Shown here piece by piece: positions 1 through 2,113 of a stretch of 64,000 bases of DNA (position 1 is the stretch's first letter; each line of letters opens with the position of its first letter). The position numbers and the translations under genes are program-made. This stretch comes from Escherichia coli. Lineage in GTDB: Bacteria; Pseudomonadota; Gammaproteobacteria; Enterobacterales; Enterobacteriaceae. The notes below the pieces were generated by a model that did no database searches, was not told the DNA's origin, and worked only from the letters and a program-made list of their open reading frames with translations. The DNA lies in NCBI RefSeq assembly GCF_045037415.1, contig NZ_CP173438.1; one strand, written 5' to 3'.

Positions 1-388
1 ACGGCTTCTTTAATGAGTTCATTTTCCATCGTTTTGTTCCGAGCAGGCGCTGGCGTTCTTTAATCTGCCTTATGGCAGCAGCAAGTTCAGAGGCAGGAAC
101 GATCTGTTCCCCAGCAGTCACCGCAGTAAGACTTCCCTCCTGGTATTGCTTGCGCCAGAGAAGTAACTGGCTGCTACACCATGTTGCCGGGCAACGAGGG
201 AGACCATCATTCCTGGTTCAAAGCTCTTCTGAACATTAGCGATCTTTTCCTGTGCAGTACGCCGTCTGAGTTTCTCCGGTCCTGAGGCATCAATCATCTG
301 TTTTCCAATGACCAGTCTAAAAACTAATATTAAGATTATCACTTAAATAAGTGATACTGGTTGTCTGGAGATTCAGGGGGCCAGCCTA
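1..388 (-). mobile_element. IS2-like element, partial (window starts inside it); terminal sequence GGAGATTCAGGGGGCCAG at about 367-384
   Basis: Recalled IS2 terminal sequence and orfA-like coding sequence on the minus strand; one mismatch at the extreme end. Confidence 0.7.
118..342 (-). pseudogene. IS2 OrfA (InsC-like) transposase fragment, frameshifted after the conserved [10 protein letters not shown] segment
   Basis: ORF translation MIDASGPEK...[18 protein letters not shown] matches recalled IS2 OrfA N-terminus and then diverges. Confidence 0.65.
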
Positions 389-517
389 TCCGGGAAAGTT
401 CACTCACTTTGAATGAAGTAAATATTAAGTATCACATTTTGTGATGTAGCCATTATTTTTATAAAAAATCACCTGATAGGATTTATCATAAGTTAATGAT
501 AAGCAGAGTATTGATAG

Positions 518-958
518 ATGAGCAAGAAGAAGTTTTCTGTTGAGAATGAAGATCTCGCTACTGTTCGTACATCACTTCTTAATTCCAACCTTGTCCGGAA
601 GTTGATCATGGAAATGTCTGATGAAGACTTCAATCAAGTTAAGGATAACCTTGAAAAGGCCATTGAGCAGCGTAATGAGTTGAAGGATTCTTTGGCAATT
701 ATCAAAAAGTACATGGATGACGCAGGTGTAACGGCGGAAGATGTGTATCGTGAATTTGGCAAAAAATTACAGACGGGCAGAAAAAACGATTCAGGAGAGT
801 CTAATAAGTACAGGTATGAGTATAACGGTCAAATAATGTACTGGAGTGGACAAGGTCGTCGGCCTTCTGTTATTGCAGAAGCAATAAAAGCCGGAGGTTC
901 TCTTGATGATTTTCTTATATCTCAGGGCACATCATCATCTTGTTCTGATTATGAGTGA
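518..958 (+). CDS. H-NS family nucleoid-associated protein (island-encoded paralogue)
   Basis: 146-aa ORF; C-terminal YWSGQGRRPSVIAEAIKAGGSLDDFLI resembles the H-NS DNA-binding motif TWTGQGRTP...SLDDFLI; N-terminus looks coiled-coil-like. Confidence 0.75.
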   Translation: MSKKKFSVENEDLATVRTSLLNSNLVRKLIMEMSDEDFNQVKDNLEKAIEQRNELKDSLAIIKKYMDDAGVTAEDVYREFGKKLQTGRKNDSGESNKYRYEYNGQIMYWSGQGRRPSVIAEAIKAGGSLDDFLISQGTSSSCSDYE

Positions 959-1225
959 TACATCTAATCGGTTGAATGTTGCTGTAATGCTCGCTTTTGA
1001 TGCTTATATGGCAGCGTTACCGTTTATTGTTTTAGTTACAAATTGGTCGTCATGGACATAACCTGAAATTATAACTATCATCGGGTCTTTCAAGTTGCTT
1101 ATGCATATAACGCCAGGGAGGAAAACGAGAGTTAAAAAATTGAACTGTTCTCATAGAGACTGTAATTTAAATTGTGTAATTGCCGGTTTTGATATGTTCG
1201 CTCCAACAACGTAGACAAGTAGATT

Positions 1226-1417
1226 GTGGACGAAAAGACGCTTAAAGTCCTTGCGGCTGAGCTGGCTAAAGGCCTCAAAACCGAGGCCGACCTCAATCAG
1301 TTTTCCCGTATGCTGACGAAATTAACTGTCGTAACGGCGCTTAATGCAGAACTCGGTAACGGCTGCAGATGTTCCTGCTCTGGTTGTGGTCGGCCAGCAA
1401 CAGGAATCCGGAGTTGA
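1226..1417 (+). pseudogene. IS256-family (mutator-type) transposase N-terminal fragment, about 45 aa conserved then divergent
   Basis: MDEKTLKVLAAELAKGLKTEADLNQFSRMLTKLTV matches recalled IS256-family transposase N-termini; truncated by the adjacent IS21-like fragment. Confidence 0.5.
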
Positions 1418-2015
1418 ACACGACTTTCCCGTTGTTATTCTTCAGCACCGCAGCCTTCTGGTTATCAACCAGCACCGTTTTCACACAACCACCGAAGTAG
1501 CGGAAGGCACGAACCAGTGATTCGTAGGTATGCTCAGCATCCTGTTTTGGTGCTGCGAAGACATGGAAGCGGCGGGAGAACCCCAGCGTATTAACCGCAA
1601 AGTTAACTTTGCACCGTTGCCCGGCAACCTCCACCTCAACTTCGCCCCAGTCGTGCTGGAGCTGGTATCCAGGCTGAGTTTCGAAGCGAACTGTTCTTTT
1701 TGACGGACGCATTTTACGTTTGGGCTGGATGTAGTAACGCAGCATGGAACGTCCGCCCGTATAACCCATTGCCTTAATCTCCGCGAAGATAACCTCACTA
1801 TTCCAGACATTCTCTGCCAGGCGCATGTCGATGTAATCCATAAACGGTTTCAGCTTAACCATTTTGTGGCGGGTCTTTCTGGCTGGCGGTTCAGGGTATT
1901 TGAGGTAGCGTCTGACCGTCCGTTCAGAGCAACCAATCTGAGTCGCAATATCGACAATGTACGCGCCCTGCTGGCGCATTTGCTTTATCATGTAAAAGTC
2001 CTCTCTGCTCAGCAT
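1341..2015 (-). pseudogene. IS21-family transposase IstA fragment (C-terminus lost at about residue 205)
   Basis: MLSREDFYMIKQMRQQGAYIVDIA... matches recalled IS100 IstA; frame diverges after LLADH. Confidence 0.75.
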
Positions 2016-2113
2016 GTTGATGTCCTTTCTGGTGTGAGAACCTTAAGGAAACAACATGTTGGGTGGAGCGGACAATCCAAATGGTGACCGTCTTATTATC
2101 GCTGGCGCTGACA
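1341..2113 (-). mobile_element. Truncated IS21-family element (IS100-like): left terminus and 5' two-thirds of istA only
   Basis: IstA-like ORF 1341-2015 on the minus strand with HTH N-terminus and YQLQHDWGE motif; TGTCAGCGCCAGCG-type terminus read as reverse complement ending near 2113; no istB. Confidence 0.7.

Follow-up and report, generated by a model that had tools for sequence, protein, structure and literature searches.

The first 2.2 kb of the window (the whole 64,000-nucleotide stretch of Escherichia coli contig NZ_CP173438.1, assembly GCF_045037415.1, analysed here) contain the dead remains of an IS2-like, an ISEc39-like and an IS21-like insertion sequence, which surround an intact H-NS-like gene (Table 1). 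An earlier note on this DNA had recognized three IS families between positions 1 and 2113, and strong alignments to IS2, to the IS256-family element ISEc39 and to IS21-like elements bear this out: when the fragments were aligned to check whether they fail to match IS families, all matched named families. The interval is not wholly debris, as approximately 36% of it (389-1155) is non-IS DNA with the intact gene, and its right limit stands only in part: 2113 is the exact left terminus of the IS21-like piece (TGTCAGCG..., - strand), but the debris runs on to 2167. Every relic piece is already marked as a transposase pseudogene in RefSeq. For sequence upstream of the window we used strain 219 (NZ_CP020514.1, from 63930) as a stand-in, the chromosome of which is identical to window 1-12481 except for one SNP; upstream positions are given below as negative window coordinates.

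Table 1. Remnants and intervening DNA at the left end of the window.
Feature	Position	Strand	Basis
IS2-like element (IS3 family), left portion, IS2 positions ~393 to 1	1..388	-	alignment to IS2A of K-12
Non-IS island DNA, 34-41% GC, between relics	389..1155	+	contains H-NS-family gene
Intact H-NS-family gene, 146 codons	518-958	+	Pfam Histone_HNS
ISEc39-like left end (IS256 family), ISEc39 positions 1-198	1156..1353	+	85.5% identity
IS21-like istA internal piece, 27 bp, IS21 positions 977-951	1354..1380	-	27/27 identity to L006 2255-2281
Filler TGGTT, 5 bp, at 219-bp internal IS21-like deletion	1381..1385		junction comparison with L006
IS21-like left end, IS21 positions 731-1	1386..2113	-	98.8% identity to 2131-bp copies
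ISEc39-like right end, same element, ISEc39 positions 1261-1314	2114..2167	+	43/49 identities

The IS2-like relic aligns to IS2A at 89% identity (E 7e-169), with its IRL terminus at 388 and a single mismatch between IS2 positions 1-30 and window 359-388. Its orfA (InsC-like) starts near 297 and is frameshifted by a 4-bp deletion near 175 and by 1-bp indels; in translation it matches Pfam HTH_Tnp_1 and the NCBIfam ‘IS2 repressor TnpA’ model (NF006928; E 8e-20, 71.5 bits, below the cutoff of 229), and RefSeq labels the piece ‘transposase, frameshifted’. The element looks fragmentary in the window because the window edge cuts it. In strain 219 it extends upstream to about -489 (right end aligned at about -486), this part corresponding to IS2 positions 887-1328 at 86% identity, such that both termini are present and an internal deletion of 437 bp has removed IS2 positions 450-886. 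The description of the three families as present only as fragments is therefore accurate for the pieces within the window but not for the IS2-like element as a whole. The closest complete relatives among 5,426 complete E. coli genomes are IS2 copies only 87-89% identical, which points to an old or foreign IS2 relative that probably decayed in place; no copy more than ~91% identical occurs in these genomes outside the syntenic relic. No clear 5-bp target-site duplication surrounds it (TCCGG versus ATCAG/TCAGG, at best 4/5).

The ISEc39-like element is represented by its two ends, with the left one aligning from window 1155/1156 (E 3e-60) and its IRL (GAGACTGTAA...) starting at 1156. Terminal inverted repeats are present at both ends, GAGACTGTAATTTAAATTGTGTAATTGCC at 1156 on the left and ...TTACACTGAATTATTTACA ending at 2162-2167 on the right. 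What remains of the transposase is its first 43 codons (1226-1353, from a GTG at 1226), too short for HMM detection. In the right-end piece, which was absent from the earlier note, 2114-2162 correspond to ISEc39 positions 1261-1309, and the last 5 bp before the element end at 2167 have diverged. The piece is dissimilar to the right end of IS1414, a comparison made on that end as two IS1414 reference copies were truncated. The reference termini of ISEc39 were set on two independent copies in different contexts (1314 bp, 8-bp target duplication ATTCTGAA); around the element described here there is no 8-bp duplication (TTCTCATA versus GTTATAAC). No closer full-length relative was found among the 5,426 genomes, and the best non-syntenic match to the IS256-like piece, 92% identical and located on a pINV plasmid, is likewise a fragment. 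In an allele free of the element (strain AR_0114), homology to the window ends exactly at 1155/1156 and returns only at 2210, not at 2168.

Between the two ISEc39-like ends lies the IS21-like fragment, the termini of which were set on a complete plasmid copy (L006; 2131 bp, TGTCA...TGACA, 4-bp target duplication CCTG). BLAST alignment to a complete 2131-bp copy runs from 1386 to 2118 at 98.8% identity, and the IS21-type left-end sequence with its 5'-TG terminus (TGTCAGCGCCAG...) ends at 2113 on the - strand, where the TGTCA of the IRL (TGTCAGCGCC...) abuts ISEc39 position 1261. On the other side the 27-bp istA piece joins the ISEc39-like fragment directly, with ISEc39 position 198 abutting IS21 position 977. 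Two segments of the element are missing, namely positions 732-950 (219 bp) and 978-2131 (the remainder of istA, the whole of istB and the right end), and the latter (istB, right terminus) has no match anywhere from -3500 to 3300. The boundaries of these pieces and their nesting are thus demonstrated. The first 210 codons of istA are left (ATG at 2015), encoding the HTH and part of the rve/DDE core; they score 174.6 bits against NCBIfam transpos_IS21 (NF033546, cutoff 160) and also match Pfam rve, whereas the C-terminal ~180 codons are missing, in keeping with the RefSeq label of an istA pseudogene lacking its C-terminus. Assignment of the piece to IS100 was considered and rejected, as both the alignments and the RefSeq labels give IS21-like. 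The truncated frame runs for 224 codons to a stop in IS256-like sequence; it is disrupted in strain S30 but open in this allele, in which some residual expression may be possible. None of the relics is able to transpose, because the IS21-like piece lacks the right end, IstB and the IstA C-terminus, the ISEc39-like element retains 43 transposase codons, and the IS2-like element has a broken orfA and a deleted orfB. That each IS truncates the next, as the earlier note proposed, is true of the ISEc39-like/IS21-like pair only; the IS2-like piece lies 767 bp away, and the IS2-like and IS256-like pieces do not truncate one another, as an intact gene separates them.

This gene is a highly divergent member of its family; its product has the Pfam Histone_HNS C-terminal domain (E 1e-11), shares 38% identity with the C-terminal part of K-12 H-NS and has the QGR motif. 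A 144-aa allele only 62.5% identical keeps the full open reading frame, with a dN/dS of approximately 0.46, the value also given against the 75% allele, from which we conclude that the frame is a real gene. It is carried by 441 of the 5,426 genomes, on chromosomes only, and falls into at least three allele groups (>=99%, ~89% truncated, and ~75%). Strains S30 and MB98 have a substitution at window 557 and an annotated product shortened to 116 aa. The protein accession is absent from the supplementary tables of a paper on the HlpC clade. A 36-codon hydrophobic reading frame overlapping the stop of the gene (951-1061) was dropped, being unconserved in the 75%-identical allele. To the right of the debris, window 2168-3208 is ~1 kb of non-coding, very AT-rich DNA (29-37% GC) leading to a Gp2/YagK-YfjJ-type gene (3209-3775); this stretch is only ~86% conserved in the AR_0114 allele, with many indels. 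An Rfam scan (E-value mode) of window 1-6000 returned no RNA family, and a promoter and terminator scan of window 300-2300 yielded fewer sigma-70-like sites than shuffled controls (2 versus 4.4) and no usable signal.

The region belongs to a genomic island at selC, the - strand tRNA-Sec gene at 32525-32619. The 3' end of selC is directly repeated over 25 bp, at window 32523-32547 and, in strain 219, next to yicT/setC (L002 18736-18760, or window about -15170), and these copies represent attL/attR. Comparison with the empty K-12 locus shows that chromosomal homology stops exactly at both repeats, and the island therefore extends from about -15169 to 32523 (~47.7 kb). In strain 219 an integrase lies at its selC side and a CbtA/YeeU/DUF4942 module at its setC side; the selC island thus shows insertion at a tRNA 3' end, an adjacent integrase and a flanking direct repeat, as expected of tRNA islands. 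The earlier note was right to suggest that the window stops short of the island boundary and the distal att repeat, and the extension upstream that it recommended, carried out here in strain 219, recovered the repeat. Its placement of the IS cluster at the end of the island did not hold, the cluster being demonstrably ~15 kb inside. A RefSeq ‘rhuM fragment’ between the distal repeat and setC is collinear with K-12 yicT-setC intergenic DNA and is therefore not island DNA. Elsewhere in the window, 10934-14028 comprise two exact tandem copies of a 1547-bp unit with an IS110-family ISEc45 transposase gene, inside an interrupted IS66-family ISEc43; the unit is single-copy in strain 219 and in the other 13 genomes covering at least 80% of window 1-25000.

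Several features of the flank upstream of the window involve further IS elements. At strain 219 L001 10810-11400 (about -1190 to -600) there is a fourth relic, which represents the 3' portion of an IS1414-like element of the IS256 family and is 93-94% identical to IS1414-family copies; within it is an intact 38-codon astA reading frame (L001 10907-11020) for a variant of the EAST1 heat-stable enterotoxin. Beyond it, a 935-bp restriction-endonuclease segment (-2144..-1210) recurs with the same right boundary in strain BMH-17-0027 (L019 1977-3206), where it lies in inverted orientation and abuts an ISEc39-like left end internally, at position 285, in place of an IS1414-like interior, suggesting rearrangement via IS256-family elements. 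A circular ‘plasmid’ record of 62,375 bp (CP057032.1, pRHB40-C01_2), for which no replicon could be typed, carries the same island module, in which an additional IS66-family element has inserted into the interval separating the restriction-endonuclease gene from the IS1414 relic. In this record (L016) a tyrosine integrase adjoins the DUF4942 distal end, as expected of an excised and circularized island, which suggests island excision.

The cluster is widely shared. Window 1-2500 is covered to at least 80% in 126 of the 5,426 genomes, and the IS256/IS21 junction is found in 131. The pheU island of strain M159-1 shows zero differences over window 1-2233, and the cluster also occurs in a pheV island (MB98) and in a second selC island (2009C-3133). 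Strain S30 has the same junctions together with two more deletions in the IS21 piece (window 1385-1527 and 1773-1911). At a larger scale, selC and pheU islands are collinear, with ~95% identity, across a 9.7-kb block (-4038 to 5614). Identity of the junctions between genomes is therefore demonstrated, and because identical junctions occur at three tRNA loci, the events that formed them are best placed in the ancestry of a shared backbone module. This agrees with the published observation that islands at the selC, pheU and pheV loci share content (PMC6174562). The repeated insertion and deletion proposed in the earlier note is thus upheld in number, as the region and the flank immediately before it together record four or more IS insertions and four or more deletions, but these events are ancestral and not local to this genome or site.

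We regard the cluster as an inert, inherited scar of old transpositions in the backbone of a tRNA-associated genomic island, a reading to which we give a probability of about 0.9. The order of events and the deletion mechanism are inferred as follows. An ISEc39-like element (~1314 bp) would have inserted downstream of the island-borne hns-like gene, after which an IS21-like element (2131 bp) would have inserted into it, oppositely oriented, at 1260/1261. Both ISEc39 positions 199-1260 and IS21 positions 978-2131 may then have been removed by one or two illegitimate deletions, and another 219 bp within istA were probably lost separately. This would leave the arrangement present at window 1156-2167, with the IS21 fragment between the ISEc39 left and right ends. 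Independently, an IS2-like element would have inserted upstream of the hns-like gene and decayed in place, as its ~11-14% divergence from IS2, its frameshifts and its 437-bp deletion suggest. The cluster would now be carried passively within a conserved island module at selC, pheU and pheV. Insertion of the ISEc39-like element at this exact site may not have been a simple event: because homology to AR_0114 is regained only at 2210 and there is no 8-bp duplication, the right flank may have been rearranged or the nested structure imported by recombination. No intact progenitor at the cluster site was found in the 5,426 genomes.

An unlikely alternative, and one that deserves weighing, is that the debris is the residue of a fusion, that is, a recombination seam joining two ancestral island modules, with the IS copies having served as homology or breakpoints. 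Gp2/YfjJ-like genes do lie on either side (strain 219 L001 8819-9550 and window 3209-3775), the left context in AR_0114 is different, with homology to the window starting only inside the hns-like gene at 749, and the adjacent 935-bp restriction-endonuclease segment is joined to differing IS256-family interiors between genomes. Yet the block from -4038 to 5614 is collinear in the sampled selC, pheU and pheV islands, no one-sided variant was found, and nesting followed by deletion accounts fully for the internal structure. We think it quite improbable, too, that a conserved cassette is made up of the relics, the hns-like gene between them and, ~1 kb before the window starts, the IS1414 remnant bearing astA/EAST1, a cassette recently exchanged (100% identity) among selC, pheU and pheV islands, in which the hns-like product or the open truncated IstA HTH protein acts as an island-encoded regulator or silencer.

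The earlier note's own account, in which repeated local insertion and deletion erode this genome's selC island at its distal end and each IS truncates the next, is already largely refuted, and we consider it very unlikely. Several IS families are indeed packed into ~3.3 kb, relatives show further events (the extra IS66 insertion in CP057032.1 and the extra deletions in S30), and the boundary and att repeat do fall outside the window. Local erosion is nevertheless difficult to reconcile with a distal boundary ~15 kb off, with the position of the cluster inside a 9.7-kb block collinear in other islands, with the recurrence of the same junctions in ~130 genomes at three tRNA loci, or with an IS2-like relic that has both its ends and is separated from the other relics by an intact gene.

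Two further proposals are scarcely credible. The IS1414-like (-1190..-600) and ISEc39-like (1156) pieces lie in direct orientation, both on the + strand, and bracket the hns-like gene as though it had been brought in by a composite transposon of which they are the surviving ends; we reject this origin since the pieces are different IS species (the upstream one shares 93-94% identity with IS1414 and only 71% with ISEc39, while the downstream ends match ISEc39 at 85-88% and do not resemble IS1414), only a 3' end is present in the upstream piece while the downstream one has two ends of its own, a flanking duplication was not found, and other hns-like alleles exist without either IS. Nor is there much to commend co-option of the relics, whether the open 224-codon IstA (HTH and partial DDE core) were to regulate or inhibit the transposition of IS21 or the IS ends were to provide promoters for neighbouring genes: in this allele the truncated istA frame is intact, as are its start and the region upstream of it, and the frame is 100% conserved between selC and pheU copies, but such conservation reflects recency and is powerless to detect selection, S30-type alleles delete parts of the frame, sigma-70-like sites were fewer than in shuffled controls, as noted above, and the IS2-like end facing the hns-like gene is, by its aligned orientation, the left end (IRL), from which the element's own transcription would run on the - strand, away from the gene.

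Read as an inherited scar, the cluster is an ordinary feature, since E. coli islands routinely contain decayed IS remnants nested in one another, and the present ones were already annotated. Its biological importance is small, and its practical value lies in correct annotation: an intact H-NS-family gene sits within the debris, the debris ends at 2167, and the island continues for 15 kb past the window. The identical junctions also offer a handy marker of common descent or recent exchange of the backbone module among selC, pheU and pheV islands.

Each relic can be set against its reference element. The IS2-like relic resembles IS2 of K-12 in that both terminal regions (1-449 and 887-1328) align and the orfA HTH family and orientation logic are shared, but it is only 86-89% identical, carries frameshifts, has lost the orfA/orfB overlap and the N-terminus of orfB, and is non-functional. 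Similarly, the left 198 bp and right 54 bp of the ISEc39-like element, including both inverted repeats, align with ISEc39 at 85-88%, whereas positions 199-1260 are missing, with the IS21-like fragment in their place, and there is no target duplication. The IS21-like fragment matches IS21 and IS21-like elements (2131 bp, istA and istB, 4-bp duplication; common on E. coli F-type plasmids) at 98.8% over positions 1-731, with left terminus and istA N-terminus intact, but without the IstA C-terminus, IstB and the right end it cannot transpose. The island as a whole resembles the mosaic tRNA islands of E. coli described in LEE-negative STEC (PMC6174562), with the same integration sites at selC, pheU and pheV and with shared backbone genes (Gp2-family, restriction endonuclease, phosphoethanolamine transferase, ProQ/FinO, YeeP-like GTPase, antirestriction and CbtA/YeeU); the IS cluster is undescribed in that account, whereas here it is a fixed feature of the shared module.
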